DNA from: a virus
Lineage: Duplodnaviria; Heunggongvirae; Uroviricota; Caudoviricetes
Reading direction: 5' to 3' (one strand)
IMG/VR virus record: IMGVR_UViG_3300044638_003984
DNA: 64,000 nt
The translations under genes were made by a program, and so were the position numbers. Below the pieces are notes generated by a model. The model saw only the letters and a program-made list of their open reading frames with translations. It was not told the DNA's origin and ran no database searches. This document shows, one piece after another, positions 8,489 through 61,467 of this stretch; position 1 is the first letter of the stretch, and every line of letters starts with the position of its first letter.

Positions 8489-8941
8489 TCATATATAAAA
8501 TGTAGTGTTTTTCTCATAATCCTCTATATAATCAGAACATATACCAATACATTTAGAAATATTGTCTTCGTAAAGTTCCGGAATAACAGCTATAGAATTA
8601 TTTATAGGCTGTTTACCTGGATACACCCAAATGAATCCTTTGGATGTTAATGTCATATCGTCCACATCATGCCAGAACCAATTAAACACGGTACTGAACA
8701 TAATATCAACTGCACTATGATTTTTGCAATGAATCCAAAGTTTATGGTTTCTTTCATATAGAAATGATAGATCAATTTCTGAATGACCAGAATCATGACC
8801 AAGAAATAACTGTGAATCATGAACCCACAAATCTACTTCTACATCGTAACCAAGATCTAATGCTCTGTCAATATAATCTGGAGTATTTTCTAGATCCCGA
8901 TTCTTTCCAGAAATGTTACCACGATGTGAAATATATATCAT
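8489..8941 (-). CDS. glycerophosphodiester phosphodiesterase (GDPD)-like protein
   Basis: N-terminal SHRGN...ENT...G-D-VEVD...HD motifs typical of the GDPD family. Confidence 0.5.
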   Translation of the reverse strand: MIYISHRGNISGKNRDLENTPDYIDRALDLGYDVEVDLWVHDSQLFLGHDSGHSEIDLSFLYERNHKLWIHCKNHSAVDIMFSTVFNWFWHDVDDMTLTSKGFIWVYPGKQPINNSIAVIPELYEDNISKCIGICSDYIEDYEKNTTFYI

Positions 8942-9621: not shown

Positions 9622-9622
9622 A

Positions 9623-11072: not shown

Positions 11073-11665
11073 ATTCTTTTGAAGTGTACGTCCGCTTCTT
11101 TATTAACATTATCAGGAATAACTTGACAAGAAAATCCATTATCATTTAAGAACTGCACAATATCTTCTACTCTATTAGAAGTTCCTGTATATAATTCTAC
11201 AGTATATGATCCTTCACACTTACCTTCTCTTACTATGTTAATTCTATTTCCTAAACTCTGCAATACTCTGAAATCGTTTCCTTGCGCATCTATCCACAAA
11301 TAATCTATATCTAATATAGATTCACTTTCTATTATAGAATCCAATCTCTTCTTTTCTACTAGACAAGACTCAGTGAAACTGAAATCTGGTCTGTTTTCCC
11401 AAAGTTCATGAATATTTTCACTGAATTTATATAGAGAAGAACATCCCCAATCTCCACTACCAGCTATATTAAATTCTGATATTCCTTCTTCAACATCTAT
11501 CGCATAAGGATAAATTTTAATATTTGAATAATGTTTGAAATTATTCGTTAGATCTGAGAATAATTTTGGTGTTGGTTCGAAAGCGAAGACAACATTATTC
11601 TCATTATCAGCAAATCTTTTCGTGTCTAGACCTAAATTTGCTCCGACTTCAAATATTATATTCAT
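11069..11665 (-). CDS. FkbM-family methyltransferase
   Basis: N-terminal FEVGANLGLDT...VFAFEPTP pattern of FkbM SAM-dependent methyltransferases. Confidence 0.55.
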   Translation of the reverse strand: MNIIFEVGANLGLDTKRFADNENNVVFAFEPTPKLFSDLTNNFKHYSNIKIYPYAIDVEEGISEFNIAGSGDWGCSSLYKFSENIHELWENRPDFSFTESCLVEKKRLDSIIESESILDIDYLWIDAQGNDFRVLQSLGNRINIVREGKCEGSYTVELYTGTSNRVEDIVQFLNDNGFSCQVIPDNVNKEADVHFKRI

Positions 11666-13016: not shown

Positions 13017-13037
13017 ATTACCAAACTATATTTATCC

Positions 13038-14210
13038 TTATGCTTGTGGAGCTGTCTTAATCCCTGCTGGATAATAACGATTCAACCATTCTAATTCATC
13101 TGTATGTTCGTCTTCCGTATACCAACCTTTACCAGTGTAAACATTATGAACCATGGTGAAATAATGCTCATACATTCTGGCAACACGGTCCAGTGTGAAG
13201 TTTGCCATCGCCCAATCTCTACAATCTTGTGGATTGATCTTGTCAATATTCTTAGCCGCCCAAGAGAATTCTGAGAATGAACGACAACGATAACCAGTTA
13301 CTCCGTGTAAATTATTCTCTGCGTGTGAACCCCAATCTGTTGTGATAATAGGACAACCTGCAAAAAGAGCTTCGATAGATGCTCCACCAAAAGGTTCGTT
13401 GAACATAGAAGGAAGCCAAAATCCTTTTGCTTTTGACAGGACTCGTTTTCTATCTTCAGAATTTAGATATCCGATAACTTCAATTTGACCAGGAATTTCT
13501 TTATAACCATGTTCTTCAAGAGAACCTTGTCCTGCGATCTTCAATTTCAACCCAAGTTTTTCACAGACTTGATAGGCAACATCAATACCCTTTCCAGGAT
13601 AGATTCTACCCATGAATAGAAGATAATCATCTTTCTCTTTTGAAAATTCAAATTCATCTGGATCGAAATAATTAGGAATCACAGCATGATACCAGGATTC
13701 TTTGCACTGACCAACAGCTTCATGACCACCAACAGCAGAACGAATGGCATATGATTCATAGATTCGCCAAGGAGAGAATTGGCCTGTAGCATATCCAATA
13801 CCAGGCTCTACGATAATCATATCGTCTACAAACGCATCACATACTGGTTTATTACCCCATCCCCAGAAAGGTAGAATGAAATCGTTTGGTTGTTTTCTCT
13901 TTTGAATTTCTCTAATAGCGTTCTTATAGAAAGTTTGATAAGCATGGTCATTCATATCAAACTTAAAGAAATTCTTGCGCCAATCAAAATCACCATATGC
14001 TTTCTTAAAATCATCATTGGTAACAACCGTAACATGTTCCGTACACTCTAGTTCGGAATCTTCGTGACCATAATGAATAACTTCGTGTCCACGTGAGACC
14101 ATCATTTTCCCGAATTTGCGTGTCTTTTGTCCGTACGCACAAGCCGAAAATTCTGCATTAGTTACTACATGTGGTGGTGGTAGAATATGAAATCTAAACT
14201 TTTGACTCAT
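13038..14210 (-). CDS. glycosyltransferase group 1 (GT4-like)
   Basis: GRIYPGKGID...KIAGQG and EPFGGASIEALFAGCPII motifs typical of retaining GT-B enzymes. Confidence 0.65.
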   Translation of the reverse strand: MSQKFRFHILPPPHVVTNAEFSACAYGQKTRKFGKMMVSRGHEVIHYGHEDSELECTEHVTVVTNDDFKKAYGDFDWRKNFFKFDMNDHAYQTFYKNAIREIQKRKQPNDFILPFWGWGNKPVCDAFVDDMIIVEPGIGYATGQFSPWRIYESYAIRSAVGGHEAVGQCKESWYHAVIPNYFDPDEFEFSKEKDDYLLFMGRIYPGKGIDVAYQVCEKLGLKLKIAGQGSLEEHGYKEIPGQIEVIGYLNSEDRKRVLSKAKGFWLPSMFNEPFGGASIEALFAGCPIITTDWGSHAENNLHGVTGYRCRSFSEFSWAAKNIDKINPQDCRDWAMANFTLDRVARMYEHYFTMVHNVYTGKGWYTEDEHTDELEWLNRYYPAGIKTAPQA

Positions 14211-26222: not shown

Positions 26223-29200
26223 ATGACAACTCTGAATTTCAATACATCATCGAATTCAATAGTCGATTCATCAATATCAATAACATCCCATAATTTAATA
26301 ACTGGAGTTAATGTAAGATATCAAAATGGCTCTGACCCATCACCATATAATATTGGTTTGACAGATGGAACCGAATATTATGTTGTAGTTAAAAATACAA
26401 ATACAATTTATCTGACATCTAATTTAGATGATATACAATTCTTTTTGAGTTCATTTGATGATTTAATTAATTTGAATGAAAATTCCATTTATATCGATGA
26501 ACACAATTTTTCTACTGGTGATAGAGTTATATATTCTTCTAATGAGGGAATTGATATTGGTGGATTAACTTCTTGGCAAATCTATTATGTAATATCGATT
26601 GATGAAAACAAAATAAAATTAGCAACAAATTATTCGAACGCATTGAATAATATTTCTGTTGATTTAACGAATTTGGGTGAAGGATATACTCATTTAATAT
26701 TTAAATATATTGAGTTATCACCTTCTTCTCTTCCAGGACAAACACATTCATTAGAATACAATTATATTGAAATTGGTGGAGGAGGAGTCTCAGGATCAAC
26801 TGGATTTACAGGATCTACTGGGTTGACAGGAGCTACAGGTCAATTCGGATCAACTGGATTTACTGGTGCAACTGGATTTACAGGATCAACTGGATTTACA
26901 GGATCTACTGGGTTGACAGGAGCTACAGGTCAATTCGGATCAACTGGATTTACTGGTGCAACTGGATTTACAGGATCAATTGGATTTACAGGATCTACTG
27001 GATTTACAGGATCAACTGGATTTACTGGTGCAACTGGATTTACAGGATCAATTGGATTTACAGGATCTACTGGATTTACAGGATCAACTGGATTTACAGG
27101 ATCAACTGGATTTACAGGATCTACTGGATTTACTGGTGCAACTGGATTTACAGGATCAACTGGATTTACAGGATCAACTGGATTTACAGGATCTACTGGA
27201 TTTACTGGTGCAACTGGATTTACAGGATCAACTGGATTTACAGGATCTACTGGATTTACAGGATCAACTGGATTGACAGGAGCTACAGGTCAATTCGGAT
27301 CAACAGGATTTACTGGTGCAACTGGGCCGATTGGCGGTTCAAATACACAAGTTTTATATAATTCTAGCGGAGTCGCCACAGGTTCTGCCAATTTTACATT
27401 TGATGGAACTAGGGCAACCATTGCTGCGTTGACGGTAGATACAAGTACATTGTATGTTGATGCAACAAATGATAGAGTTGGTATTGGGACAACGAGTCCT
27501 GCGGTTATTTTAGATCTTGGTGGTGGAACAAATTTTGTTAATGGTGTAACATCTTATACTGGTATTTCACCAACTGCAAAAACAATACAAATATATGATG
27601 CCACACAATCTTTCTTAAATTTAGTCAGCGGTGTTGACACCGCTGGTGCAGTGCTAGGTGGAATATTTTTCAGTAGAAGTCTTGGTCAAGGCGATGCTCA
27701 CTACAATGTTGCTGGAATAACTGCTTTACAAAATAGTACAGGAACAATTTCTGGTGGGGAATTATTATTTTATACAAAGGCTAACTCTTCACCTACAGAG
27801 AAAATGAGAATCAATGTAACAGGTGACATTATTTTCGGAAATGGGGAATCGAGTGCTACAACTACAGCAGCTACTTTAAGAGGACCAGCTAGAACAGGAA
27901 CAAATGCTGCTGGTTCTAACTTAACTATTGCTACTGGCAATGGAACTGGAACGGGTGGTAGCGGATCTCTAATATTTCAAACTGCTTCTGCCGGATCTTC
28001 TGGGACAACGGCAAATACTTTAAGTGAAAGAATGAGAATCGACTCCTCCGGCAACGTCGGTATTGGAACAGCGAGTCCAAAGCAATTGCTGCATGTAGCT
28101 GGGCAAGGATTGTTTACAACTAGTACATCAAGTTATGACCCAGGTGATTCAGCCGGATCTGCGGTAAGAATCGGTTACAATACTGGTGGAGATTATGGAT
28201 ATGTAATATCCAACAATACTGGCGTAGCCAGTAAACGACTTCTTGTTGGCGGATCTACTGTTGAATTTCTAGTTAGCGGCGCAGAAAAAGGCCGTTTTAA
28301 CTCTGATGGGAAGTTTGGTATTGGAACGACGAGTCCATTAACCACACTACATGTAGGTGCTGTTGCTGCCCTCGACGGCGATGTCACTCTTAGTGCTGGC
28401 ACTAACATGGTGTATGCCACTGCTACTAGTGGGGCGGCGCTGACCTGGAATGCAACCACCAATGGTGGATATGCAAACACCATCATGGCTAGATTACAGC
28501 CTCGCCAGGACACTGGCGCAAACTACTGCTTGGATGTATTCTGCGGTACCTGGAACAACAACAACTCTGCTGGCACTGCTATTGCTACATTCTCAAGTTC
28601 TGGCAATGTCGGTATTGGAACGCAAAGTCCATCTAAGAAAGGTTCCGTAGGGACTGCCGGGACGGACGGCTTTGCGATCCAGTATTCCCCCACCTCGCAA
28701 GAAGTTTTTTCAGTTACGGCAAACACAGGGACTGGCGAGACAAAATTCTTTTGCGATACCAATTACTTCCAGACGTTCTACACGAATAACTCTGAAAAGA
28801 TGCGTGTTAATACTGATGGATACCTTCTTGTTGGATACGCTTCTTCAAACGGATCATACAAACTCCAGGTTAACTCTCAGATATTTGCTACTAACGCAAC
28901 CATCGCTACCTCTGATGGACAATACAAGCAGAACGTTGTTTCGTTGCAGTCTGGTTTGGACGTGATAGAAAAGCTCAATCCAGTCACTTTTAACTGGAAG
29001 GATCACGATATTCACAACTTTGAGAGTGGTACTCAGGTTGGCTTCATCGCTCAGGAAGTTAAGGAGGTTCTTGCGGATACTCCGTACCTGGATTCAGTCA
29101 TCAAGCGCAACGAGCTAAAGCGAGACGATGGATCTGTTGAAGAATTCTACGGCATGGCGGATGCCAAGCTGATCCCCGTATTGGTCAAAGCAATTCAAGA

Positions 29201-29240
29201 ACTGAAGGCAGAGATTGACCTTCTGAAAGCAGGAAATTAA
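26223..29240 (+). CDS. collagen-like tail fibre protein with C-terminal intramolecular chaperone (peptidase S74-like) domain
   Basis: ~170 residues of (G-S/A-T-G-F/L-T) triplet repeats; C-terminal [11 protein letters not shown]...[15 protein letters not shown] resembles endosialidase/tail-fibre self-cleaving chaperone domains. Confidence 0.7.
26790..27340 (+). repeat. tandem 9/18-bp repeats (ggatttacaggatcaact units) encoding collagen-like G-X-Y triplets
   Basis: About 30 near-identical 18-bp units with higher-order ~96-bp periodicity. Confidence 0.8.
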
Positions 29241-34265: not shown

Positions 34266-35876
34266 ATGTTTGATTTTTTTGGTTTTACTATCAAGAGAAA
34301 AGGTCCGGAAGAGGAGAAAGAATTACTTTCTCCTGTTCCACCACAATCTGACGACGAAGCTACTATAGTAACTTCTAGTGGTGGTTTCGTCAACACATCG
34401 TTTAATACGGAGTTTTCTTCTTCAGATAAGAGAGTTCTGATAAACAAATATAGAGAACTTTCTCTTATGCCAGAAATCGAATCGGCAATTGATGAAATCG
34501 TTAACGAAGCAATTGTTACCGGAGACCCAGAATCTCCGGTCGGAGTTATTTTAGACCGTCTTCCTTTTTCAGAAGATATTAAAGAAGTAATACAAGACGA
34601 ATTTTCTGCAGTCTTGAATCTACTTGATTTCAATGAAAATGCTTACGAAATATTCAAAAGATGGTATATAGATGGAAGATTATTCTTTTCAGTTGTAATT
34701 GATTCGAAGAATACAAAAGATGGTATTCAAGAACTAAGATATATTGATCCAAGAGAAATTGAAAAGATCAGAGAAGTGAAAGAAGAATTTTCTAAGCGTG
34801 GTGTGAAGTTACAAAAGACTGTACAAGAATATTATTTTTATAAAAACGATATTAAGTTACCTGCAGATTCAGTAGCATATTGTAACTCAGGATTGATTGA
34901 TTATAAAAATAAAGCAACAGTAATTTCGTACTTACACAAATCAATTAAACCGTACAATCAATTGAGAATGTTAGAAGATGCTACTGTAATCTACAGGTTA
35001 GCAAGAGCTCCTGAAAGAAGAGTCTTCAAGATTGGAACTGGTGGGCTTCCAAAAATTAAAGCAGAACAATATGTAAATTCATTGATGAATAAGTTCAGAA
35101 ATAAGATTGTATATGATCAAGCAACAGGAGATCTCAGAGACGATTCAAGAACTCTATCCGTTCTTGAAGATTTCTGGATTCCAGTTGGAGAAGATGGTAA
35201 GACAACAGACATCTCTACTCTACCTGGTGGACAAAATCTCGGTGAAATGGGAGATGTGGAATACTTCCGCAAGAAATTATATAATGCCCTACATGTCCCA
35301 ATCACTAGAATTTCAGAAGGATCTACATTCAATACAGGTAGATCTGCAGAAATAGATAGAGAAGAAGTTAAGTTTAACAAATTTATTAAAAGATTAAGAG
35401 TGAGATTCTCTTCTATCTTCACAGATCTTCTGAGAACTCAGTTAATTCTAAAGAATATTATAACTACTGAAGAATGGGATACTTATGTGAAGAACAATAT
35501 TTATTATGACTTCAGAAAAGATTCTCACTTCGCAGAATATAATGAAGCTGAAATCATGTCTAGAAGAATGGAATTGGCCTCATCTGCAATAAGTTTAGGT
35601 GATAATTATTTCTCTGAAGATTATATTAAGAAACACTTCTTGAAGTTATCTGATGAAGAATTGAAGGAAATGGAAACAGATAAAGAATCTGTTCCTGATG
35701 AAGAGACTCCTGTAGAACCTGAGATGGATCTAGGAATGTCGGACCTTGGTAATCCTTCTCCTGAAGAACTTCCACCATTAGAAACTCCAGAGATTTCTAA
35801 CATTGAATTACCTCAACAAAATCCCTCAACAATTATAAATAAGAAAGGGAAAGAAAATGAACCTAGAAAATTTTAA
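34266..35876 (+). CDS. portal vertex protein, T4 gp20-like
   Basis: YLHKSIKPYNQLRMLEDATVIYRLARAPERRV and FWIP...GKTTDISTLPG blocks match T4 gp20. Confidence 0.9.
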   Translation: MFDFFGFTIKRKGPEEEKELLSPVPPQSDDEATIVTSSGGFVNTSFNTEFSSSDKRVLINKYRELSLMPEIESAIDEIVNEAIVTGDPESPVGVILDRLPFSEDIKEVIQDEFSAVLNLLDFNENAYEIFKRWYIDGRLFFSVVIDSKNTKDGIQELRYIDPREIEKIREVKEEFSKRGVKLQKTVQEYYFYKNDIKLPADSVAYCNSGLIDYKNKATVISYLHKSIKPYNQLRMLEDATVIYRLARAPERRVFKIGTGGLPKIKAEQYVNSLMNKFRNKIVYDQATGDLRDDSRTLSVLEDFWIPVGEDGKTTDISTLPGGQNLGEMGDVEYFRKKLYNALHVPITRISEGSTFNTGRSAEIDREEVKFNKFIKRLRVRFSSIFTDLLRTQLILKNIITTEEWDTYVKNNIYYDFRKDSHFAEYNEAEIMSRRMELASSAISLGDNYFSEDYIKKHFLKLSDEELKEMETDKESVPDEETPVEPEMDLGMSDLGNPSPEELPPLETPEISNIELPQQNPSTIINKKGKENEPRKF

Positions 35877-36249
35877 GCAAGCATATGTAAAGACAATATC
35901 GGAATCAACAGATGATTCGGATCTCACGAATTATATCAGATCTATTGTAGAAGAAGCGGTAACTGAAGGCAAACTATCTAGTTTAGCGAAAACGGCGGTC
36001 GGACGTTTAGGGAAAATGGCTGGGATTGGATCAAAAAACGAACCAAATTTTGGCTTCAAACCAAAAGACAAAGTTGGTACTCCAAAAGAACAAGAACAAG
36101 CCATGGAACAATTAGATAATATTAGAAATTATTTTATGGAGATAGATGATTTACTAAGAATATTAGATACCAAAATCAAGAATGAATACATTGATGACTT
36201 TATTGATGAATTCAATGAGTTACTCGTAGATCTTAAATCATTAAAATAA
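35857..36249 (+). CDS. prohead core protein (gp67/gp68-like position), acidic
   Basis: Between portal and prohead protease as in T4; shares its N-terminal MNLENFKxAY with the small ORF at 41251. Confidence 0.45.
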   Translation: MNLENFKQAYVKTISESTDDSDLTNYIRSIVEEAVTEGKLSSLAKTAVGRLGKMAGIGSKNEPNFGFKPKDKVGTPKEQEQAMEQLDNIRNYFMEIDDLLRILDTKIKNEYIDDFIDEFNELLVDLKSLK

Positions 36250-36886: not shown

Positions 36887-37155
36887 TGCTTAACGAAAAA
36901 ACAGTTAAGATGGGTCAGAAAATCCGCTACGATAGGGTTCGTGGCGGTAAGATTCAACGTAAGAAGATTAAATCTGCTAAAGCAGGATATAGAGTTTCTG
37001 GTAAAAAATTAGTTAGAATGAATCCCGCTGAAAAAAGAAAACGAGCAATATCTGCTAGAAAAGCGTCAAGAAAAAGAGCAGCAAAATTATCATCAATCTT
37101 AAAGAAAAGAAAGATCTCAATTAAAAAAGGTAAAAGAGCAGGAATATACAAATGA
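36886..37155 (+). CDS. highly basic small protein (internal head protein / prohead core candidate)
   Basis: About 40% Lys/Arg; sits before gp21 where T4 has the gp67/gp68 core proteins. Confidence 0.45.
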   Translation: MLNEKTVKMGQKIRYDRVRGGKIQRKKIKSAKAGYRVSGKKLVRMNPAEKRKRAISARKASRKRAAKLSSILKKRKISIKKGKRAGIYK

Positions 37156-37793
37156 AACTATTAACAGAAGTAAATGAATTCATAAAAATTGTTTCAGAAT
37201 CTGCTGAAGGTAAACCAAAAGATTATTTTATTGAAGGTATTTTCATCCAATGCGAGAAGCCAAATAGAAATAATAGAGTATATAAGATGGAATATATGCA
37301 ACCAGAAGTAGATCGTTATGTTGAAGAATACGTCAACAAGAATAGAGCTTTTGGTGAATTAGGTCATCCAGATAATCCTACAATTAATCTAGATAGAGTA
37401 TCGCATCTTATTACTGTTCTAGAACAAAAAGGTAATGATTATATCGGTAAAGCAAAAGTTCTAGATACACCAAACGGAAAGATTGTTAAAGCATTTATCG
37501 ATGGTGGTTGTATGTTAGGTGTTTCTACTAGAGGATTAGGTTCTCTTCAACAAGAAAAGTCTTTTTCTATGGTTCAACCAGATTACAAAATTATGACTGC
37601 CGCAGATATTGTTGCTGATCCATCTGCGCACGAAGCATTTGTGGAAGCTGTTATGGAATCAAAAGAATGGGTTTGGAATAATGGAATTGTGAAGGAAGTA
37701 ACTATTGATTCATATAAGAAGAAGCTAACAACATCAAAAAGATTACAAGAAGATAAGATTGCCATTTTTACAGACTTTCTTTCGAGATTGTAA
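37152..37793 (+). CDS. prohead core protease, T4 gp21-like
   Basis: YFIEGIFIQCEKPNRNNRVY, GELGHP and GVSTRGLGSL blocks match T4 gp21. Confidence 0.85.
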   Translation: MKLLTEVNEFIKIVSESAEGKPKDYFIEGIFIQCEKPNRNNRVYKMEYMQPEVDRYVEEYVNKNRAFGELGHPDNPTINLDRVSHLITVLEQKGNDYIGKAKVLDTPNGKIVKAFIDGGCMLGVSTRGLGSLQQEKSFSMVQPDYKIMTAADIVADPSAHEAFVEAVMESKEWVWNNGIVKEVTIDSYKKKLTTSKRLQEDKIAIFTDFLSRL

Positions 37794-40427: not shown

Positions 40428-41237
40428 ATGCCTAATAATATTTATTGTACATACCTTACAATCTACAAAGGTAACAAACTCCCTCTATATTATATTGGTT
40501 CAACTTCTGTTAATAGAATTAACAAAGGTTATCATGGAACCGTGTCTTCTAAGAAATATAAAGATATCTATAAACAAGAATTAATATCTAATCCTCACCT
40601 ATTCAAAACAAAAATACTTACAACACATGAAACCAGAGAAGAAGCTTATGAGAAAGAATTGTTCTTTCAAATAAAATTATCTGTAGTTAAATCACCAATG
40701 TATTTCAATGAATCATTGGCTGTGACAAATGGTTATTTTGGTCGTGCTCTAAATGGAAAAGATAATCCCCTACACGGTAAGAATCATTCAGAAGAAACAA
40801 GAAGAAAGATGTCTGAGAATAGAAAAGGAAAATATAAAGGAATTCCTAAGTCTGAAGAACATAAAAGAAAAATTGCATTGGCAAATACAGGTAAGAAACA
40901 TTCTGAAGAATCTAAACGAAAAATGTCTTTAAATCATATTGGTATTGTTGCTTCTGATGAAACTAAGAAGAAATTATCTGATATGAGAAAGGGTGAAAAG
41001 CATCCTCTTTATGGAAAGACACATTCTCCAGAATCAATTCAGAAGATGAAAGAGACGCATAGTAATCGTTCAGAAGAAACACTAAAGAAGCTGTCTGCTG
41101 CCAAGAGTGGTGAAAATAATCCTAGTTATGGAAAGAAATGGTTCCATAATCCCATTACCTTAGAACAAATTAGGATCCATCCTAACAATCCTCCATCTGG
41201 ATTCTTTCCTGGTAGAATTCCTAAAATTAATAAATAG
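40428..41237 (+). CDS. GIY-YIG homing endonuclease with NUMOD3 repeats (paralogue of 137-748)
   Basis: N-terminal IYCTYLTIYKGNKLPLYYIGST nearly identical to the first copy; multiple HGKxHSEETRxKMS NUMOD3 motifs; inserted directly after gp23. Confidence 0.8.
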   Translation: MPNNIYCTYLTIYKGNKLPLYYIGSTSVNRINKGYHGTVSSKKYKDIYKQELISNPHLFKTKILTTHETREEAYEKELFFQIKLSVVKSPMYFNESLAVTNGYFGRALNGKDNPLHGKNHSEETRRKMSENRKGKYKGIPKSEEHKRKIALANTGKKHSEESKRKMSLNHIGIVASDETKKKLSDMRKGEKHPLYGKTHSPESIQKMKETHSNRSEETLKKLSAAKSGENNPSYGKKWFHNPITLEQIRIHPNNPPSGFFPGRIPKINK

Positions 41238-41250
41238 ATGAGAGGAATAT

Positions 41251-41508
41251 ATGAACCTAGAAAATTTTAAAGAAGCTTATTTAACAGTTATTAATGAAGA
41301 AATTGAAGAGACCGAAGTAGTCGAAACAGAAGTAACTGATGTCGATGAAGAAACACCTGAAAACGAATTATCTGCAGCAGATCATTTTAAGATGGGTGTT
41401 ATGGCTTTGATGGGTAAGATGGATGCTTCCGAAGAAGAGAATGAAATGATCAATGATTTGGTTGCATCAATCATTTCAGATCTTAACGATTCAATGTCTG
41501 GTGATTAA
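41251..41508 (+). CDS. small acidic protein sharing N-terminal MNLENFKxAY with the prohead core gene at 35857
   Basis: The first 21 nt are identical to 35857-35877. Confidence 0.4.
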   Translation: MNLENFKEAYLTVINEEIEETEVVETEVTDVDEETPENELSAADHFKMGVMALMGKMDASEEENEMINDLVASIISDLNDSMSGD

Positions 41509-42095
41509 TACCATTCTACAATCTTATCGGCAATTCCATATCTTACTGCTTCTTCGGCAGAAAGCCACACATCGTGAGACGGCAAAAGAATTTCTCTTAC
41601 CTTCTTTTCATTCAATCCTGTACACTTCTTATAATGAGCAAGCATTCTCTGGGTAGTTAATTCAAACTCTTTATTTCTTGCATACAATTCATGTTCTTTT
41701 CCAAAAGAACCCCAAGAGAATTGATGTGAAAGGATAGAAGTATTCTGTGTAATATATCTCTTTCCTTTCTTTCCAGCCATGAAAATTGCAAGTCCAGCAG
41801 AAGCGATTGTCCCTAACCCAAAAGTAGAGATATCAATCTCGGATCCTTTCATAATATCAATAAGGGCAAATCCAGAACAAAGATCACCACCAACTGAATT
41901 AATCAGCATCCTGATTTCTGTTCGATCTTTTTGATCTTGGAAATTGGAATTTCTCTCAACAATATACTGAATAGCATCAGATGTAGATTCTATGTTTATC
42001 TCGCCAGAGAGAAGATAATAACCTGCTCCCTCGAAGGAGATATACATCTGAGGAATCTCTGGCTTTGGTTTGATTTTAGACATTTTAGTTCTCAT
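41505..42095 (-). CDS. ClpP/NfeD-like serine protease
   Basis: ClpP-family core (INSVGGDLCSGFALIDIM, GLGTIASAGLAIFMAGKKGKRYITQNTSILSHQ); start trimmed from the TTG ORF-track start to ATG (MRTKMSKIK). Confidence 0.65.
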   Translation of the reverse strand: MRTKMSKIKPKPEIPQMYISFEGAGYYLLSGEINIESTSDAIQYIVERNSNFQDQKDRTEIRMLINSVGGDLCSGFALIDIMKGSEIDISTFGLGTIASAGLAIFMAGKKGKRYITQNTSILSHQFSWGSFGKEHELYARNKEFELTTQRMLAHYKKCTGLNEKKVREILLPSHDVWLSAEEAVRYGIADKIVEWY

Positions 42096-42256
42096 TTCGG
42101 TTGAGGAATCGAACTCCAACGAAAATATTTATCAGATGAATATAAGGACTCAACAATCCTAGAAGCATCAAAGGGATTAGAGGCTTGCACCTCATAATCC
42201 CTCATCATTACGGATCTTTGTTGACCGCAATAAAATGAGCACTTGTATGTTGTCAT
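42092..42256 (-). CDS. hypothetical 54-aa protein between the SPFH and ClpP-like genes (not in ORF track)
   Basis: ATG 1 nt after the SPFH stop; its TGA overlaps the ClpP-like ATG (ATGA coupling). Confidence 0.3.
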   Translation of the reverse strand: MTTYKCSFYCGQQRSVMMRDYEVQASNPFDASRIVESLYSSDKYFRWSSIPQPK

Positions 42257-42257
42257 G

Positions 42258-43049
42258 TTACTTCACATTAACTAGAGGAACAGCATTTGTACCAAGAATC
42301 ATAGTGCAATTCGATTTAGAACAAGCTTCGATTTGTAACATACGAAGATATTGATCTGGAGTTAAGCCTCTAGAATCCTGATATGCACGATCTGCTTCAG
42401 CACGTTTAATCTCAGCCGACTTACGAGACTCTTCAGCAAGAGCTCTTTGTGTTTCAGTCTTAGATCGTTGTTGTTGAACACCCGTTTCATTATATGCCGC
42501 AATAATTTCTTTTTGTGGAGAAATCTTACCAAGCGATACATCTAAAACTTTTACAGGAATCTTATGTTTGGTTACATATTCTTGTAATTGAATTTCTAAT
42601 TCTCGTTCAACTTTCTCTACAACCTCTTGTTGTAGTGCCAATTCTGGCATTGAATATTGTCGAACTTGATTACGATTCATTGTTTGGAAAGGTCGTTGAA
42701 TATTCTTCTGATAGAATTCCGGCCCAAAATTCACTACTAGAGCAACAGAATCTGTAATTTGTAGAAGAACGGAAGCATGATAATCAATTGGATTATTATC
42801 CTTGGGCATAATATCATCAAATGGCTCGTCATATTTAATTGGCTTCTTATCTACATCATAAGAATCTGTAGATAGAGCCACGATAACAGAACCAGGTTTA
42901 ATTGGTTCCTTGTCAATACCACCATGACCAAACAACCATGGTTTATAGATTAGAACTGCTTCATGTCCAGGTTCAACATTTACTCTCGTACAAGAAGTTC
43001 CCATTAGAACCAAACATAAACTAAATACAACTGCAATTTTCTTAATCAT
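42258..43049 (-). CDS. SPFH (stomatin/prohibitin/band-7)-domain protein with lipoprotein-type signal peptide
   Basis: N-terminal MIKKIAVVFSLCLVLMGTSC; central SPFH-like region followed by a coiled-coil QQRSKTETQRALAEESRKSAEIKRAEADRAYQD. Confidence 0.6.
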   Translation of the reverse strand: MIKKIAVVFSLCLVLMGTSCTRVNVEPGHEAVLIYKPWLFGHGGIDKEPIKPGSVIVALSTDSYDVDKKPIKYDEPFDDIMPKDNNPIDYHASVLLQITDSVALVVNFGPEFYQKNIQRPFQTMNRNQVRQYSMPELALQQEVVEKVERELEIQLQEYVTKHKIPVKVLDVSLGKISPQKEIIAAYNETGVQQQRSKTETQRALAEESRKSAEIKRAEADRAYQDSRGLTPDQYLRMLQIEACSKSNCTMILGTNAVPLVNVK

Positions 43050-43210
43050 TATTTCTCCTTAATTATTCAAACCGAATCTTTCGGGTCTTCTTCTTTTCTT
43101 GAGTCGTATCAAAGAAAAGTGATATGATCTCATCAAAAGATTCTTCATTAGTCTTGATTCGAACCGAAGGATTATCGGTTGTGTAAATCGAAAAACAATC
43201 ATTAGAGAAC

Positions 43211-44137
43211 TTAACTAGCATAATTACTCTCCTTAAGAATTTTCATTAGAGCCAAATCTTTTGCTTTTGTTTCTAGATCAAGATAGAAATCTTTTCCATA
43301 ATCATCAGGAAGCGAATTAATATAATCAGAGTGAGCAGTTCGATTACATACAATTCCTTCATGAATCGCTTTTGATTCTGAATAATGGAATAGAGGAACC
43401 TCTTTCCAAGTAGAGAAAGCCATATCGAATGCTTCTTCTTCAGTTAATTCATATTCATTACCATTATATAACGAATGATGGAAGAAGTCAAACGTCAGAG
43501 GAATTCCAATCTTCGAGTGAATATCCAAGAATAGATGAGATGTAGAATATGACGATTGTTTATCATCATTCTCCACAACAAGTCTCTTCTTCATACTATC
43601 AGATAATCTTCCAAAGTTTGCACAGAATCGATCGGAAGTCTCTTCGGAATAAGACATTCCAACATGGATATTAATTGGATAAAATTCACTGGCCTCAAGA
43701 CCCATATGATTCATGATAGAATTGTGAATCTCTAAATCTTTGATCGAATTTAGAACAACATTCTCTTTCATCGATCCCAACTTAACAAATGGACCAGGAT
43801 GAAATGATAATCTCATATCATAATATTTTGCCAAAGACCCAATATCTTGTAGGATGCTTTTAATTTTCGACCAATCAGGAAGATCTTCGAATACATATTC
43901 TGAAGCCCAAGGAAACATCTCGGAAGACATGCGGAAATTCTTAATCTTATTCTGGCCATTCCAATCTACAATCCTGAGTAGATCTGACACGTTCTGAACA
44001 ATAAGATCCGACGCATAATCTATTCCTTTTGTGAGGAATGTATCTTTGCGCATGGTTCTATTAGAAGTAAGTCCTAATGATTTCTGGAGAGTAAGATTAA
44101 TGCAACAATATCCAGGATAAATCACAATTGATCCCAA
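43211..44137 (-). CDS. uvdE: UV damage endonuclease UvdE/UVDE
   Basis: YPINIHVG, RLVVENDDKQ and ETKAKDLALMKIL blocks match bacterial UvsE (YINIHVG / LENDDK / EAKQKDLAML). Confidence 0.75.
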   Translation of the reverse strand: MGSIVIYPGYCCINLTLQKSLGLTSNRTMRKDTFLTKGIDYASDLIVQNVSDLLRIVDWNGQNKIKNFRMSSEMFPWASEYVFEDLPDWSKIKSILQDIGSLAKYYDMRLSFHPGPFVKLGSMKENVVLNSIKDLEIHNSIMNHMGLEASEFYPINIHVGMSYSEETSDRFCANFGRLSDSMKKRLVVENDDKQSSYSTSHLFLDIHSKIGIPLTFDFFHHSLYNGNEYELTEEEAFDMAFSTWKEVPLFHYSESKAIHEGIVCNRTAHSDYINSLPDDYGKDFYLDLETKAKDLALMKILKESNYAS

Positions 44138-44541
44138 CCTTCTGTTTCAAGAGTATAATATACTTTCTTGATATCAAATTCAAATATTGCCCGCATACAA
44201 CCAGAACAAGGTTTCGCCAACCCATAGACTATACTATTAGTCAAAATATCATACTTAACACGACAAACATATAGACTAACTTTCTTGAAATCTTCTACAT
44301 CTATTTGTCTCAATGCATTCTTAATTGCAGATATCTCTGCGTGTAGATAGATAGACAGATCTTTGTTTGTTGCATATTTAGCTTGGAGTGGAGATGATTT
44401 CATAGAATTTACTCCAACCGAAACTATCTTGTTTTTGTAAACAATAGCGGCAGCAAGTTTAGCGCCAGAAACTTTCGGATTAGCTATCGCTATTTGTTTG
44501 AGGAGAGAAAAGACTCTAGAGATCTTCAGCTCAGATTCCAT
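44122..44541 (-). CDS. cytidine/deoxycytidylate deaminase-family protein
   Basis: Zinc-binding HAE...PCSGC motif. Confidence 0.6.
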   Translation of the reverse strand: MESELKISRVFSLLKQIAIANPKVSGAKLAAAIVYKNKIVSVGVNSMKSSPLQAKYATNKDLSIYLHAEISAIKNALRQIDVEDFKKVSLYVCRVKYDILTNSIVYGLAKPCSGCMRAIFEFDIKKVYYTLETEGWDQL

Positions 44542-44581
44542 ACATTAAGTATACCGTATCCGACGGGTAAAGTCAAGCTCA

Positions 44582-45094
44582 TCAAAAATTAAAATATTTT
44601 AATTTTGTTCGGTAGATCGAGTCGTCAATCTCTTTCAAGAATTCGAACCAATTACTCGCAATCTTGACATTTAGATAATCACACACCATCTTGACATTAC
44701 CATATCTCCAAAAATCTTCTGTACAATACACAATCGTTTTTCGACCGGATTTACCGATCGATCTTCCGAATAAGCCTAATTCTAGTAACGTAATAGGAGA
44801 TTTAGTATTCGGATCAAAATAATAACAGTTAATATCTGAATTTTCTTGACACCGCAATTCCCACATCACTTGTTCGTGAAATCTTGGATCATCCGGATGC
44901 TGCCTCCAGGATGAATCCCAGTCATCACGACGGGGATTCATAACAACAACATCTTCATGAAGAGATAGATGTTGGATTACACGGTCTTGCCAATTATCAG
45001 CGATACCCATCTCAATAGATCCACCAAGAAAGATGGTGATATTTTCAAGGTGCTTTGCAGTCAACTTAGTTGGAGGTTTGATTACATTAAACAT
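44582..45094 (-). CDS. nucleoside 2-deoxyribosyltransferase/DNPH1-like protein
   Basis: ITIFLGGSIEMG N-terminal Rossmann-like motif; ORF trimmed to MFNVIKPP. Confidence 0.45.
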   Translation of the reverse strand: MFNVIKPPTKLTAKHLENITIFLGGSIEMGIADNWQDRVIQHLSLHEDVVVMNPRRDDWDSSWRQHPDDPRFHEQVMWELRCQENSDINCYYFDPNTKSPITLLELGLFGRSIGKSGRKTIVYCTEDFWRYGNVKMVCDYLNVKIASNWFEFLKEIDDSIYRTKLKYFNF

Positions 45095-45971
45095 ATAAAC
45101 TATCCAATTCTTCTTTCGCAATTTCAGCCATCCAATCAATAACGTCAATAACTTCGACATTATCAGAAATACCAGACTCTGTGAAAGAATTTGTTGTGTA
45201 GATCTTATCAAAGTATTTCGATAGATCATCGAATCCTTTCGAGAAGATTCCGTGTGTCACAAACAACCGAAGATTTGGGATCTGCAACTTTTCAGCAATA
45301 CCCAAGAAAGTTCCACCACCATCACAGATATCGTCGATGATATAAGAATTTCGTGTCGTGTCTTTGATTACTGGAACTTCGAAACCAAGAAATCTGCCAG
45401 TAACAGGATCACGTTTCTTTTTGCAGTAATATTTCGGATGATTATCGGAAAGCATATCAGCATATCTATTCTTCGCACCTTCATCCGGAAAGATAATATT
45501 TGCTTCAGGATCAGTTACAAGAATTTCTTGAATAATCTTATTAATCGGAATATCTTTATACTCATAATCAAACCTGTTAGAATGACAATCTAAAGTATAG
45601 ATTTTTGCATATGGCCAGACGCAGGTAATGATATTCAAGAAAACTTTCTTACCGAGACAATCTCCTTCTACGAAGCGACGATCGGCTCTTGAATATGGAA
45701 GATAAGGAATCACAACAGCAATATTATTGGATGGCATAGACAAAGTAATATCGTTGATTGCATCTTGCAACAGAAGCAACTTCATTACATCATCGGAATT
45801 CTTAATTCGATGAATTAAGACAACACCAAAACACGAAGTCAATGCTTTGATAGTTTCGGGTTTGAGGCGAACCTGAAGTTCGCCTCCTGGATACTTAAAC
45901 CACTCGTACGAATTTTCGTCGATACGCAATACATTACGATTGGACACGAACACGCTCCTTAATGGTTTCAA
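45087..45971 (-). CDS. prs: ribose-phosphate pyrophosphokinase (PRPP synthetase)
   Basis: PRPP-binding loop IIDDICDGGGTF and overall Prs architecture. Confidence 0.8.
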   Translation of the reverse strand: MKPLRSVFVSNRNVLRIDENSYEWFKYPGGELQVRLKPETIKALTSCFGVVLIHRIKNSDDVMKLLLLQDAINDITLSMPSNNIAVVIPYLPYSRADRRFVEGDCLGKKVFLNIITCVWPYAKIYTLDCHSNRFDYEYKDIPINKIIQEILVTDPEANIIFPDEGAKNRYADMLSDNHPKYYCKKKRDPVTGRFLGFEVPVIKDTTRNSYIIDDICDGGGTFLGIAEKLQIPNLRLFVTHGIFSKGFDDLSKYFDKIYTTNSFTESGISDNVEVIDVIDWMAEIAKEELDSLYV

Positions 45972-47409
45972 ACTTCACTTTATTCAGTATACCGTCTTTC
46001 AAGATGCAAGTCAAGTCGCAATTTTCAAGTTCTTCGAGAGTCGCTTCTTCCTTACAAATCCAGTTGTTATTTTCTGGAGTCCAATCTGGAGCCTTGTAGA
46101 CAGCAAGAATACCTTTACGAGATTTCTTCATTCCAGAATCAGTCTTTGGATCCTTAAAGATAGGAATGATTTTTCCATCTTTTTCGATAGCAGTCGCCTT
46201 CATTGCGAATCCGAAAGTGTCTCTTGTGACATACTCATAAGTATATGACCCGACACCAAACACCATATTATATGGTGAGATCTTCAATTTCTCAACGATG
46301 CCAGATAGAATCTGGCGTGCACGATCCAACGTAATCGAATCACCATAGATACAACCTGCTTTGTTGATCATACGATTATGATCCAAACCAAAAACTTCTT
46401 TCAGAAGAGCCAAGACACCAAGATCAGCTGGTCCATTACCTCGTTCTTGAATGCTAGAATTATTCTTGCCTAGTACAATCTCAACAGGATCACCGGAATC
46501 AGGACGAATAACAATCTTACCGTTACGAGCAATGATTTTATCTTTCAAACGAGGCATGAAGTCTGTTAGAACAGTCCACAGATCCCAAGTATCAGAAACG
46601 ATCGAAACGATTCCTTCTGGATAGATATCTTCAACTAGACGACGGAAAGTTTCAAATTCGTCTTCTTTACCACCAGCACACATAACAGAGTGCTCTGTAG
46701 CAGGAACAGAAGAACCTGTCGTAGCAATGTTTGCATCATAATAATGCTCAGCTGCTAGAATAGCAGGGATAGTATCAGTTCCATTGAACGATAGAAGGTG
46801 ACCCATACCAGAAGCTACTGCATCACCTAGAGACGACATACCACGCATGGAGAAATCGTGGAATTGATAATCGATGAAACCAAAATCAGTCTCTCCTGCT
46901 TTTCGTGCCCATTCCATACCAATCTTACGATATTCAAGAGCAGTCGTTGCCGAAGTGTATGGTTTCCAAATAGATAGAGAAAGAATCGTTTCTAGGAAAT
47001 TAGGAAGCCAGAAAGCGTGGTCGACTGTATTGTAAATGACAAGAGATGGAATTCCAATATTAACCGAATATCCTTCCGGAATTGCGTAGATGTTAATAGG
47101 AAGACGTCCTTCATCATGAAGTGCCTTGATGTGGTCTGTTTTGGGATTCTGAATTCCAAGAGTTTTAGAGATTACACGGACATATTCTGCTTCTACTTCG
47201 ATCCAAGGCACAGAGAAAAAGCTATTATCGAATTCCTTCAGAAGATCAAGTAGAAAATACTGGTGTCCAAAAACAACAATTTTTTCAATACCAGGGACAC
47301 GAGATTTTCGTGCAGTCCAATTTGAGTAGACTCGTGTCACTCCTTCTGGATATTGGCGAACGTGATCAATCTTGTAGAAGTCTGCTAAGAGAACTGGGAT
47401 GGTGTTCAT
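45934..47409 (-). CDS. nadV: nicotinamide phosphoribosyltransferase (NAMPT/NadV)
   Basis: N-terminal MNTIPVLLADFYKIDH and the rest matches the NAMPT family; start chosen at the ATG with a GAAAGG RBS. Confidence 0.8.
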   Translation of the reverse strand: MNTIPVLLADFYKIDHVRQYPEGVTRVYSNWTARKSRVPGIEKIVVFGHQYFLLDLLKEFDNSFFSVPWIEVEAEYVRVISKTLGIQNPKTDHIKALHDEGRLPINIYAIPEGYSVNIGIPSLVIYNTVDHAFWLPNFLETILSLSIWKPYTSATTALEYRKIGMEWARKAGETDFGFIDYQFHDFSMRGMSSLGDAVASGMGHLLSFNGTDTIPAILAAEHYYDANIATTGSSVPATEHSVMCAGGKEDEFETFRRLVEDIYPEGIVSIVSDTWDLWTVLTDFMPRLKDKIIARNGKIVIRPDSGDPVEIVLGKNNSSIQERGNGPADLGVLALLKEVFGLDHNRMINKAGCIYGDSITLDRARQILSGIVEKLKISPYNMVFGVGSYTYEYVTRDTFGFAMKATAIEKDGKIIPIFKDPKTDSGMKKSRKGILAVYKAPDWTPENNNWICKEEATLEELENCDLTCILKDGILNKVKFETIKERVRVQS

Positions 47410-47460
47410 AATTAACCTTTCTTTATTCATTATACTAAATATAGAATCAGAAAGCAAGCT

Positions 47461-52326: not shown

Positions 52327-52401
52327 GCGCTTGTAGCATAATGGTAATGTAGAAGATTCTAAACCTTCGAGATGAGAGTTCGATTCTCTCCAAGCGCACC
52401 A
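52327..52401 (+). tRNA. amber suppressor tRNA (anticodon CUA), 75 nt, CCA encoded
   Basis: Cloverleaf GCGCTTG-TA-GCAT-AATGGTA-ATGT-A-GAAGA-TTCTAAA-CCTTC-GAGAT-GAGAG-TTCGATT-CTCTC-CAAGCGC-A-CCA; anticodon loop positions 34-36 = CTA. Confidence 0.7.
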
Positions 52402-60147: not shown

Positions 60148-61467
60148 ATGAAATCCTTCAAACAATTTCTTATTGAAAACGAATTATCTATTGGTAAATG
60201 GGAAATTATTGCCTCAACTGAAAGAAGAAGAAAGTATGCTGAAAATCTATTCGATCTAGTTCAAACAGCATATAAGGACACACCATATGGTTCATTTATT
60301 AAAACTGTAGATAATGTAATTAATGGTATTAAGAATGAAACAGATCCAACAAAACCACCGACAATTTCAGATTGGCAAGTAATTAATCTAGACTCAGATC
60401 CATATGCAGAAGCCACAGTATTCTATAGAAAAAATAGATCAGATGAAACTTGGATTGGAAATAAGATACAAGGTATAGGACATGATGGAAGATATCATAA
60501 TAGAATTAAATCATCTCAGTATGCTGTAGAAAAGATTGTTGAATTGATTAATGAAGAGGGTTGGTGGATAGAAGTTTCAGATGCGTTGAAATACATTTTA
60601 TTTAAAAGATATAATGGAAAATTTCCTGTTGTTTCTGATGTTGTGTTTTTGAGAAAATTATATAATGATCCAACTCTTGAAATGATTGATGAAGTTACAT
60701 ACACTAGAGATATTGGTAGTGGAAGAATCCAGGAATCTACCCTGGGAAAACCTGTTCTTAAGATGAAAGAAGAATCTCTAGATGAAGGTCTTTCGGATTG
60801 GTTGAGGAATATTGTGCTCGCTGCTGGTCTATTCGCTTCGGGGGAGCAGGGTGCAGAAGCAAAAAGAATAACAGTTTATCCTGATGGTAAGGCAATTTAT
60901 ACTGATACAGGAAAACCAGTAATCAATAAATTACCCAAACTACAATCTACAAAGAATATATTATTAAATGTCAAAGCAGATACTCCTGATGAAAGAAAGA
61001 AACTTTTGAATAAGATGGCGATTGCTTCTGGAATAAAAGGAAACGAGTTAGAACATTTTATTGCACAAGCTAGTCATGAAACATTAGATTTCTCGAAGCT
61101 TGAAGAAATTGGTTCTAATAATAAATTTGAATTAAAATATGGTCCGAATTCTAGAATAGGAAAAAAATTAGGTAACGATACCAAAGGTGATGGGGCGAAA
61201 TTCAAAGGACGTGGTTTCTTACAATTAACAGGTAAGTATAATTATGAGAAGATTGGTAAGATATTAAATCTAGATCTTGTTTCTAATCCTAATATGATTT
61301 CTAAGTATCCTGGTGTTGCAGCTGCTACTGCTATTGCTTATTGGAAATGGAGAGTTAAACCTAATGTTAAATCTTTCGCAACAAAAGATACAGTTTCGAA
61401 AGTTACTAAGCAAATCTCCGGATCTAGTAAAGAAAAACATATAGATAGAAGAAAACCAAAAAAGTAG
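60148..61467 (+). CDS. glycoside hydrolase family 19-like lysozyme/endolysin with N-terminal accessory domain
   Basis: C-terminal FIAQASHET...KYGPNS...GDGAKFKGRGFLQLTGKYNY...AAATAIAYW, characteristic of GH19 chitinase-like lysins. Confidence 0.6.
   Translation: MKSFKQFLIENELSIGKWEIIASTERRRKYAENLFDLVQTAYKDTPYGSFIKTVDNVINGIKNETDPTKPPTISDWQVINLDSDPYAEATVFYRKNRSDETWIGNKIQGIGHDGRYHNRIKSSQYAVEKIVELINEEGWWIEVSDALKYILFKRYNGKFPVVSDVVFLRKLYNDPTLEMIDEVTYTRDIGSGRIQESTLGKPVLKMKEESLDEGLSDWLRNIVLAAGLFASGEQGAEAKRITVYPDGKAIYTDTGKPVINKLPKLQSTKNILLNVKADTPDERKKLLNKMAIASGIKGNELEHFIAQASHETLDFSKLEEIGSNNKFELKYGPNSRIGKKLGNDTKGDGAKFKGRGFLQLTGKYNYEKIGKILNLDLVSNPNMISKYPGVAAATAIAYWKWRVKPNVKSFATKDTVSKVTKQISGSSKEKHIDRRKPKK

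Follow-up and report, generated by a model that had tools for sequence, protein, structure and literature searches.

The window analysed here is a stretch of 64,000 nucleotides of viral DNA (IMG/VR record IMGVR_UViG_3300044638_003984), in which three consecutive genes encode an SPFH/Band-7 protein, a 54-amino-acid protein (the mini-ORF; ORF, open reading frame) and a ClpP-family serine protease. An earlier note on this DNA had read the protease and the SPFH protein as a functional pair in the manner of stomatin and NfeD. The analysis speaks rather clearly against a stomatin/NfeD-like pair. The locus is probably an early-type accessory cassette with two unrelated host-directed genes, ClpP and SPFH, which are adjacent in the window lineage. 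The specific roles of the two proteins are much less certain than the verdict that they do not form a pair. The three minus-strand ORFs described in the note are all present and co-directional (Table 1).

The window belongs to an uncultured freshwater T4-like myovirus, with the portal, gp21, scaffold and gp23 genes on the plus strand upstream of the locus. Contigs nearly identical to the window came from lake metagenomes, and the nearest cultured relatives matched in gp23 only, at about 72% nucleotide identity. As 64 kb of the genome are visible, negative results at the genome level hold within the window.

The linkage of the two genes was followed in 68 IMG/VR loci with ClpP, in which the identity of ClpP to the window protein ranged from 87% down to 36%. 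Each locus was searched for the mini-ORF and for SPFH. SPFH adjoined ClpP in three of the 68 viral-contig loci (L010-L012, ClpP 84-87% identical), and in six near-identical metagenome copies. The other loci closest in ClpP already differed. In L013 (ClpP 81%) ClpP stood directly after UvdE and the small conserved orf52, with neither SPFH nor the mini-ORF, while L014-L016 (ClpP 77%) had the mini-ORF and ClpP and no SPFH. The remaining 61 loci contained neither SPFH nor the mini-ORF within the sequence around ClpP.

The loci collected on the SPFH side (L081-L084 and L087) gave a similar picture. In L082-L084 (SPFH 68-72% identical) SPFH was located upstream of UvdE; UvdE, orf52 and six small ORFs or a homing endonuclease came before ClpP. 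L081 had SPFH without ClpP, and in L087, another T4-like phage, SPFH followed an HD-domain gene and ClpP was missing. Two bacterial contigs (L085 and L086), recognisable by TonB-receptor-like, sulfatase, OPT and MFS genes, carried an SPFH gene whose product was 63% identical. A profile search of genomes for SPFH, built from close sequences, gave the nearest named cellular homologues. These were 55-57% identical and came from metagenome-assembled genomes (MAGs) of two Bryobacteraceae (Acidobacteriota; L088 and L089); none of the scanned neighbours of SPFH in these MAGs was NfeD- or ClpP-like. In the cultured phages with SPFH homologues (Tunturi_3, DLP3 and PaBG) all neighbours were hypothetical. 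ClpP-like sequences were absent from the SPFH-only loci (L081 and L085-L092) even at E<=1.

ClpP had no constant partner, such as an unfoldase or an adaptor, across 67 loci, the commonest neighbour family being present in at most 15 of them. Its neighbours in other phages were ordinary T4-like replication genes (RNase H, gp43 DNA polymerase, UvsX, RNR and helicases). In phages BUCT-ZZ01 and RsoM2USA they were an M15 peptidase, a PD-(D/E)XK nuclease, PhoH and genes of unknown function, with neither SPFH nor a Clp ATPase. The backbone of the locus is thus deaminase-UvdE-orf52-(mini-ORF)-ClpP converging on gp23, and SPFH is a movable insert that occupies one of two slots or is absent. Because the adjacency is not conserved, ClpP and SPFH are best regarded as independent accessory genes that are neighbours by chance in the window.

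The properties of the encoded proteins point in the same direction. The ORF at 41505-42119 matched Pfam CLP_protease (PF00574) with an E value of 8.5e-32 and 110.9 bits (gathering cutoff 20.2). The TTG at 42119 is unlikely to be the start codon; public gene calls take ATG 42095. In L010-L012 the ATG overlapping the mini-ORF stop runs into a stop codon three codons later, and ATG 42083 is therefore the start conserved in relatives. The Ser-His-Asp triad is in register with that of E. coli ClpP (reference sequence identical to PDB 3mt6). The ClpP fold is present including the handle region, which is of full length and ungapped relative to E. coli ClpP, and the AlphaFold2 model is a single ClpP domain. 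The assignment as a ClpP-fold serine protease was therefore correct. The label 'NfeD-like' had to be dropped in view of the Ser-His-Asp triad and the lack of membrane spans and of an OB-fold. Kyte-Doolittle analysis gave no signal peptide, membrane span or hydrophobic N-terminus. The only 19-residue window above 1.6 (1.66) was the buried active-site strand ISTFGLGTIASAGLAIFMA, and the protein is predicted to be cytoplasmic.

All NCBIfam ClpP models scored far below their cutoffs with the phage protein (best, PRK12553, 99.1 bits against 228; TIGR00493, 72 against 308.6), and by the NCBIfam equivalog and subfamily cutoffs it did not qualify as an orthologue of cellular ClpP. A homologue search gave 4,327 sequences at E<=0.001, the best 120 of which were all about 185-228 amino acids long and at least 55% identical. 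Cultured phages whose ClpP of this subfamily came nearest were Synechococcus phage BUCT-ZZ01 (51.5%), Sinorhizobium phage Phosso (45%) and Ralstonia phage RsoM2USA (35%).

The SPFH ORF matched Pfam Band_7 (PF01145) with an E value of 1.8e-19, which passes the gathering threshold, and gave 1.1e-25 with phrog_200 ('lipoprotein'). Its N-terminus, MIKKIAVVFSLCLVLMGTS followed by Cys, passed a PROSITE-style lipobox rule, {DERK}(6)-[LIVMFWSTAG](2)-[LIVMFYSTAGCQ]-[AGS]-C, and was parsed as MIKK / IAVVFSLCLVLMG / TS-C20. The same rule was passed by 48 of 72 homologues; those that failed were mostly fragments or had kept the Cys after a hydrophobic stretch. The signal has a positive n-region and a hydrophobic core with a maximum Kyte-Doolittle value (19 residues) of 1.91. 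The SPFH protein is thus predicted to be an exported lipoprotein of the signal peptidase II substrate type, which upholds the note's description of an SPFH protein with a lipoprotein-type signal. The C-terminal cysteines C243 and C248 are at least 90% conserved, which would fit a periplasmic disulfide. The structural model (predicted local distance difference test, pLDDT, 86) consists of a signal helix (residues 2-18), the SPFH alpha/beta domain, a helix of 48 residues and short terminal strands. Prohibitin, erlin and HflK/C are its closest matches in fold, ahead of stomatin and QmcA.

The SPFH gene of the phage has a GC content at third codon positions of 0.20, which is fully phage-like. The bacterial copies (L085, 5001-5798; L088, 4001-4807; L089, 3033-3836) differ greatly in GC content and are nevertheless 55-63% identical to the phage protein, which implies gene exchange between phage and bacterium.

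By these predictions the inner membrane would separate the protease from the SPFH protein, and this speaks against a direct interaction between them. With opposite compartments and an adjacency confined to one narrow sub-lineage, the functional pairing in the stomatin and NfeD style could not be upheld. The note had also proposed that the pair acts on host membranes or proteostasis. A host-directed accessory role is reasonable for each gene singly, since ClpP is not needed for heads and no late promoter was found nearby on its strand; the part of the proposal that has them act as a pair did not stand.

The regulatory surfaces of the phage ClpP were compared with those of the E. coli enzyme. 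The E. coli docking site for acyldepsipeptide (ADEP) and the IGF motif includes Val44, Leu48, Phe49, Glu51, Ala52 and Phe82, and further Arg22, Leu23, Val28, Phe30, Tyr60, Tyr62, Ile90, Met92, Leu114 and Leu189; gating is abolished once the N-terminal loops of ClpP are removed (bioRxiv 10.1101/2023.03.01.530711). In the alignment several of these positions were replaced throughout the phage family: Y60 by R, K or T, F82 by G, L114 by T, F49 by N or a gap, and A52 mostly by the acidic residues D or E. About half of the docking positions were still hydrophobic (Y62 to L/I/V, I90 to F/I/V, M92 to L, F112 to Y/F and L189 to V/I). The Arg beside the catalytic Asp (R170 in E. coli) was E, H or Q. 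The canonical N-terminal gating loops (residues 1-19) and helix alpha-A could not be recognised in the phage ClpP, and a single Pro equivalent to P4 of E. coli was kept. The N-terminal segment is rich in Lys and Pro, varies from about 14 to 45 residues across the family, and has no helix ahead of strand 1 in the model, in which residues 1-20 had a pLDDT of 56-59. The distance from the N-terminus to the INSxGG motif is nearly equal in the phage protein and in mature E. coli ClpP (61 and 63 residues), and the segment was therefore replaced and is variable, not simply deleted.

Because the gate motif and several docking residues are replaced, canonical docking of ClpX or ClpA appears less likely than co-assembly with the host ring or an ungated mode; the residue changes are suggestive in this respect. 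No phage-encoded unfoldase was visible, as no ORF of the window contained a Walker-A motif, and any unfoldase serving the phage ClpP would therefore be that of the host, unless one is encoded in the phage genome beyond these 64 kb. A tentative and rather unlikely extension is that the ClpP of many uncultured aquatic T4-like phages forms a distinct, catalytically intact subfamily, in which the axial gate and part of the docking pocket were rewritten. Such a protein might be a peptidase that lacks a gate and works without an unfoldase, as ClpP does after activation by ADEP or truncation of its N-terminus, or a viral subunit that stacks on or mixes with host ClpP rings and retargets proteolysis; the 54-amino-acid CxxxC protein would then be a dedicated accessory factor in the window lineage.

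The mini-ORF is linked to ClpP. Its amino acid identity in relatives is 74-89%, equal to or above the conservation of ClpP. Nonsynonymous differences (pN 0.07-0.19) are far below synonymous ones (pS 0.70-0.88) across relatives, synonymous sites being saturated. The mini-ORF is therefore a real protein-coding gene under purifying selection. The family had no match in Pfam, PHROG or NCBIfam, and a PADLOC scan of the SPFH, mini-ORF and ClpP proteins gave no match. An exhaustive HMMER search of 1.8 billion representatives found one other 54-amino-acid cluster as the sole true relative. Two weak matches to long repeat proteins were spurious, their Pfam content being phage tail C-terminal repeats and low-complexity sequence. 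When a profile hidden Markov model (HMM) of the mini-ORF was run over the six-frame ORFs of 94 loci, matches were confined to the window lineage, with none beside diverged ClpPs. The mini-ORF is always located 5' of ClpP, whatever the position of SPFH. It is missing in L013 and L082 and is therefore dispensable. In L001 (3283-6046), from BUCT-ZZ01, the only cultured T4-like cyanophage with this ClpP subfamily, ClpP overlaps the upstream PD-(D/E)XK nuclease-like gene and is followed directly by a gene for a 511-amino-acid protein without a Pfam match, which is an alternative possible partner.

The junctions between the three genes are short. SPFH ends with TAA, and the ATG of the mini-ORF follows after 1 nucleotide (GTGAAGTAA-C-ATG). 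At the junction of the mini-ORF and ClpP (CCGAAATGAGAACTAAAATG) the TGA of the mini-ORF either overlaps ATG 42095 or lies 8 nucleotides ahead of ATG 42083, and a GAGA/GAGG Shine-Dalgarno sequence spans the mini-ORF stop ahead of ATG 42083. This arrangement would be compatible with translational coupling. Coupling is not obligatory, since inserts split the mini-ORF from ClpP in L014-L016 and in L084. The insert in L084 is a homing endonuclease gene, and in L014-L016 a spacer of 200 nucleotides holds another ORF. The spacer ORF (L014, 5795-6000; also in L015 and L016) encodes about 63 amino acids, MEKFNYCITTNWPENN..., and shows the fast turnover of tiny genes at this site.

Table 1. Position of the features at the ClpP-SPFH locus, of the genes upstream of it and of the prohead protease gene in the 64-kb window
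Feature	Position	Strand	Remarks
gp21-type prohead protease	37152..37793	+	Pfam Peptidase_S77 9.7e-33; flanked by portal, scaffold and gp23
ClpP-family serine protease gene	41505..42095	-	196 amino acids from ATG 42095; 192 amino acids from conserved start ATG 42083
Catalytic Asp175 codon GAT of ClpP	41571..41573	-	aligns to E. coli Asp171; invariant in 23/23 family members
Catalytic His124 codon CAT of ClpP	41724..41726	-	aligns to E. coli His122; invariant in 23/23
Catalytic Ser99 codon TCT of ClpP	41799..41801	-	aligns to E. coli ClpP Ser97; invariant in 23/23
Mini-ORF, 54-amino-acid protein with conserved CxxxC motif	42092..42256	-	linked to ClpP
SPFH/Band-7 lipoprotein gene (predicted)	42258..43049	-	263 amino acids
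SPFH signal peptide and lipobox (predicted)	42990..43049	-	residues 1-20 MIKKIAVVFSLCLVLMGTSC; putative lipidated Cys20, codon 42990-42992
orf52, small conserved ORF that overlaps the 3' end of UvdE	43063..43221	-	after UvdE in all relatives, 45-69% identity
UvdE UV-damage endonuclease gene	43211..44137	-	Pfam UvdE 1.6e-52
dCMP/cytidine deaminase-like gene	44122..44541	-	Pfam dCMP_cyt_deam_1 8.5e-13; first gene after the best sigma70-like site
Sigma70-like promoter candidate TTGACT-17-TATACT	44548..44576	-	10/12 consensus; 5' of the deaminase...ClpP string

The best sigma70-like promoter candidate is placed ahead of the deaminase gene, other top sites lay further upstream, and no terminator-like site was found between this candidate and ClpP. 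From this we infer early or middle co-transcription of the genes from the deaminase to ClpP. The T4 late promoter TATAAATA was not found on the minus strand near the cassette; gp23 has this promoter at 38988. As stated in the earlier note, the prohead protease role is filled by the gp21 homologue, and ClpP is for this reason not required for head maturation. The resemblance of orf52 to the mini-ORF was visual only, and the two are unrelated by profile HMM.

Upstream of the cassette genes of Table 1 a NAD-salvage and nucleoside cluster is encoded at 44582-47430 (-), comprising NAMPT (45934-47430), a PRPP-synthase-like gene (45087-45971) and a nucleoside 2-deoxyribosyltransferase-like gene (44582-45229), after which the deaminase-like gene and UvdE follow. 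On the other side of the locus orf85 (41251-41508, +) encodes an acidic protein of 85 amino acids, and its stop codon overlaps the ClpP stop convergently. By its N-terminus (MNLENFK.AY) orf85 is a paralogue of a 130-amino-acid ORF at 35857-36249 (+) just after the portal gene, and it may be a duplicated gene for a head-core or internal protein. Beside it, a NUMOD3-type homing endonuclease gene (40428-41237, +) has a paralogue at 137-748 (+); their N-termini are nearly identical (MPNNIYCTYLTIYKGNKLP and MSKPIYCTYLTVYKGNKLP). Related homing endonucleases come and go here among relatives, as at 4650-5360 in L084.

In the proposed scheme the locus would be the end of a co-directional accessory cassette of NAD-salvage genes, nucleoside and nucleotide enzymes, UvdE and small ORFs, probably expressed early or in the middle of infection, which runs head-on into the late head-gene module. 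The ClpP protein, with the 54-amino-acid partner gene 5' of its own, would assemble ClpP-type rings through the intact handle region and break down cytoplasmic proteins or peptides of host or phage origin, for proteome remodelling or for recycling of amino acids. Co-assembly with the host ClpP ring, or a non-canonical ungated activity, would be favoured over canonical docking of ClpX or ClpA. The SPFH protein would leave the cytoplasm by the Sec pathway, receive a lipid at Cys20 and be attached to the periplasmic face of a membrane. Judged from its architecture, the long helix and the C-terminal strands may drive formation of a ring or cage like that of HflK/C or prohibitin. In the infected cell this structure could shield components of the envelope or keep them in order. 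Candidate roles that cannot be distinguished here are superinfection exclusion, stabilisation of the envelope and modulation of an inner-membrane protease, for example FtsH.

Three other explanations have to be weighed against this scheme. A pair like stomatin and long NfeD/STOPP, in which the protease processes the SPFH protein or is scaffolded by it at the membrane, is very unlikely. Adjacency, shared strand and tight spacing in the window and L010-L012 would agree with it, as would the occurrence of both genes within about 3 kb in L082-L084 and the history of the cellular proteins, since prokaryotic NfeD1b is thought to originate from a ClpP domain set beside an NfeD-SPFH operon (PMC2636767) and 1510-N has a ClpP fold (PMC4208085). 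However, the protease has a triad and not a dyad and lacks both a transmembrane segment and the OB-fold of NfeD; the two proteins are predicted to occupy opposite compartments; the SPFH protein resembles prohibitin and HflK/C in fold more than stomatin or QmcA; and the genes are no longer adjacent in the nearest relatives, nor are they in any other context examined. Equally improbable is a second morphogenetic protease, active in head maturation or in processing of virion proteins beside gp21. The phage has a gp21 S77 protease as well as scaffold and portal genes, ClpP is on the strand opposite to the head genes without a late promoter, and in most other phages it lies amid replication genes and not head genes. 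The best PHROG matches are families of 'head maturation protease' (phrog_94 at 1.9e-24, and others), and NCBIfam Clp_rel_HeadMat (NF045542) gave 70.7 bits, but this is below the cutoff of 120, and cellular-type ClpP models scored higher (99 bits). The distance of about 1.2 kb to gp23 in the window, the overlap of the ClpP stop with orf85, a paralogue of a head-module ORF, and the packaging of ClpP and ClpX in virions of phage G (PMC12484599) are the further points in its favour.

A conventional ClpP, which would raise the ClpXP or ClpAP capacity of the host by canonical docking of host unfoldases, is a more serious candidate, although it too is on the whole unlikely. The triad is intact, the handle region is of full length without gaps, about half of the docking positions are still hydrophobic, no Walker-A ORF was found in the window, and the literature treats phage ClpP as similar to auxiliary metabolic genes (AMG-like; PMC5332604, PMC7824862). 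This is countered by the family-wide change of Y60, F82, L114 and F49 to polar or small residues or a gap, by an unrecognisable N-terminal gate and alpha-A motif in a segment of variable length, by E, H or Q at the position of R170, and by scores far below the cutoff with every NCBIfam ClpP model.

Several observations weigh against the preferred reading of two independent accessory genes in an early-type cassette. The number of sigma70-like sites in the region (24) did not exceed the 29 expected by chance. Some of the searched loci end close to ClpP, which limits the calls of SPFH absence. Co-occurrence of SPFH and ClpP within about 3 kb in the small clade L082-L084 is above that in the whole ClpP family. 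The three genes of the window clade share one strand, with junctions of 1 nucleotide and of 8 nucleotides or an overlap. Such tight co-directional packing makes their co-transcription and co-expression almost certain, so that a functional link specific to this lineage is possible. The docking-residue calls depend on a MAFFT alignment of sequences about 25% identical, which is reliable at the INSxGG, DxM and GKR motifs and not at the N-terminus. Localisation, lipidation and oligomeric state were derived from sequence rules and monomer models.

A stomatin/NfeD pair would have meant a new viral use of a membrane-quality-control module; what the loci show is two accessory genes, each mobile by itself. 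As they move separately and are neighbours in one sub-lineage, ClpP and SPFH should not be treated as a 'system'. The locus is a clean case in which adjacency in a hyperplastic region of a phage genome is weak evidence of a functional link. A widespread phage ClpP subfamily with intact chemistry and altered regulatory surfaces offers a modest lead on how phages tap host proteolysis. The SPFH lipoprotein, predicted to be exported, is common to aquatic and soil phages and to bacterial contigs, including the two Bryobacteraceae MAGs.

Other features of the window lie apart from this locus. An array of 17 tRNA genes is present at 762-3267 (-), with specificities for Pro (two), Gly, His, Ile, Trp, Asn (two), Met, Tyr, Glu, Phe, Ala, Asp, Cys, Lys and Ser. 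Far from this array a lone tRNA gene with the anticodon CTA occurs at 52327-52401 (+); it was labelled tRNA-Pyl by ARAGORN and is of the amber-suppressor type, and may have a bearing on stop-codon usage or recoding in the phage or its host. Sugar-nucleotide and glycosyltransferase genes at 6816-14210 (-), including a fusion of a HAD hydrolase and a nucleotidyltransferase (11649-13016) and a GT1 glycosyltransferase (13038-14210), could serve the modification of DNA, the virion or the host surface. The 1005-amino-acid protein encoded at 26223-29240 (+) is probably a tail fibre; it contains collagen triple-helix repeats and, at its C-terminus, a Peptidase_S74 intramolecular chaperone domain. A 439-amino-acid protein encoded at 60148-61467 (+), with a C-terminal chitinase/lysozyme-like Glyco_hydro_19 domain, is a candidate endolysin or virion-associated hydrolase.

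Among known systems, the SPFH1b-NfeD1b operon of PH1510 and stomatin PH1511 shares with the phage locus a gene for a ClpP/crotonase-fold serine protease beside an SPFH gene on the same strand. The long NfeD/STOPP protein PH1510 has Ser97 and Lys138 as its catalytic dyad, spans the membrane 4-5 times and ends in an OB-fold (PMC4208085), whereas the phage ClpP has a Ser-His-Asp triad and no transmembrane segments. An NfeD OB-fold is also missing in the phage: Pfam gave CLP_protease only (residues 59-202 of 204) and nothing on the mini-ORF, and 192-196 amino acids are too short for an extra domain. The protease domain is not structurally closest to 1510-N. The phage SPFH protein differs from p-stomatin as a predicted lipoprotein that is not anchored by a transmembrane segment and not in the compartment of the protease. 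Conservation of the operon is a hallmark of SPFH-NfeD (PMC2636767), and the phage relatives did not keep the adjacency.

From cellular ClpP (MEROPS S14; E. coli 1tyf/3mt6, Listeria ClpP1 4jcq, Chlamydia ClpP2 6x60) the phage protein is set apart by scores under the NCBIfam cutoffs, by a variable segment in place of the gate motif and by replacement of the docking residues Y60, F82, L114 and F49 and of the Arg beside the catalytic Asp; its gene is carried by T4-like phages amid replication and accessory genes. It shares a separate capsid protease, a patchy distribution and a presumed host-directed role with the known non-structural phage ClpPs. Such genes were described in T4-like environmental viral genomes and treated as AMG-like (Nishimura 2017, PMC5332604), in jumbo phages, where they are patchy, probably host-directed and AMG-like (Iyer 2021, PMC7824862), and in the freshwater siphovirus P26059A (PMC5964084). 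These three papers mention neither an upstream 54-amino-acid partner gene nor substitutions at the gate or docking site, and the phage ClpPs in them are without functional characterisation. Phrase searches of the literature gave nothing relevant on phage-encoded ClpP or on SPFH in anti-phage contexts.

The SPFH protein is 12-19% identical to the proteins of the HflK/C, prohibitin and erlin cages and gave 21.9 bits with NCBIfam hflK (cutoff 159). In contrast to HflK/C, it has a predicted lipid-Cys anchor and not a transmembrane helix, is encoded by a single gene and not a K/C pair, and shows no sign of a link to FtsH. Records of phage SPFH numbered 17 by tblastn, and 27 structural matches were found in BFVD at E<=1e-3. 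Other viral members of phrog_200 occur in Stenotrophomonas phages DLP3 and DLP5, Xanthomonas phage X1, Pseudomonas phage PaBG and Tunturiibacter phage Tunturi_3, with 27-38% identity over 86-100% of the query; the window SPFH is closer to the homologues of bacteria and uncultured aquatic phages (55-63%) than to these. The viral homologues are labelled lipoprotein, SPFH or HflK-like and are uncharacterised; they lie amid hypothetical or early genes, none with a ClpP neighbour. SPFH genes are also carried by giant viruses and by Vi01-like phages, in which the gene adjoins an annotated superinfection-exclusion gene (PMC3220722). As phages were known before to encode SPFH proteins and non-structural ClpPs, the two genes of the window are ordinary additions to known kinds.

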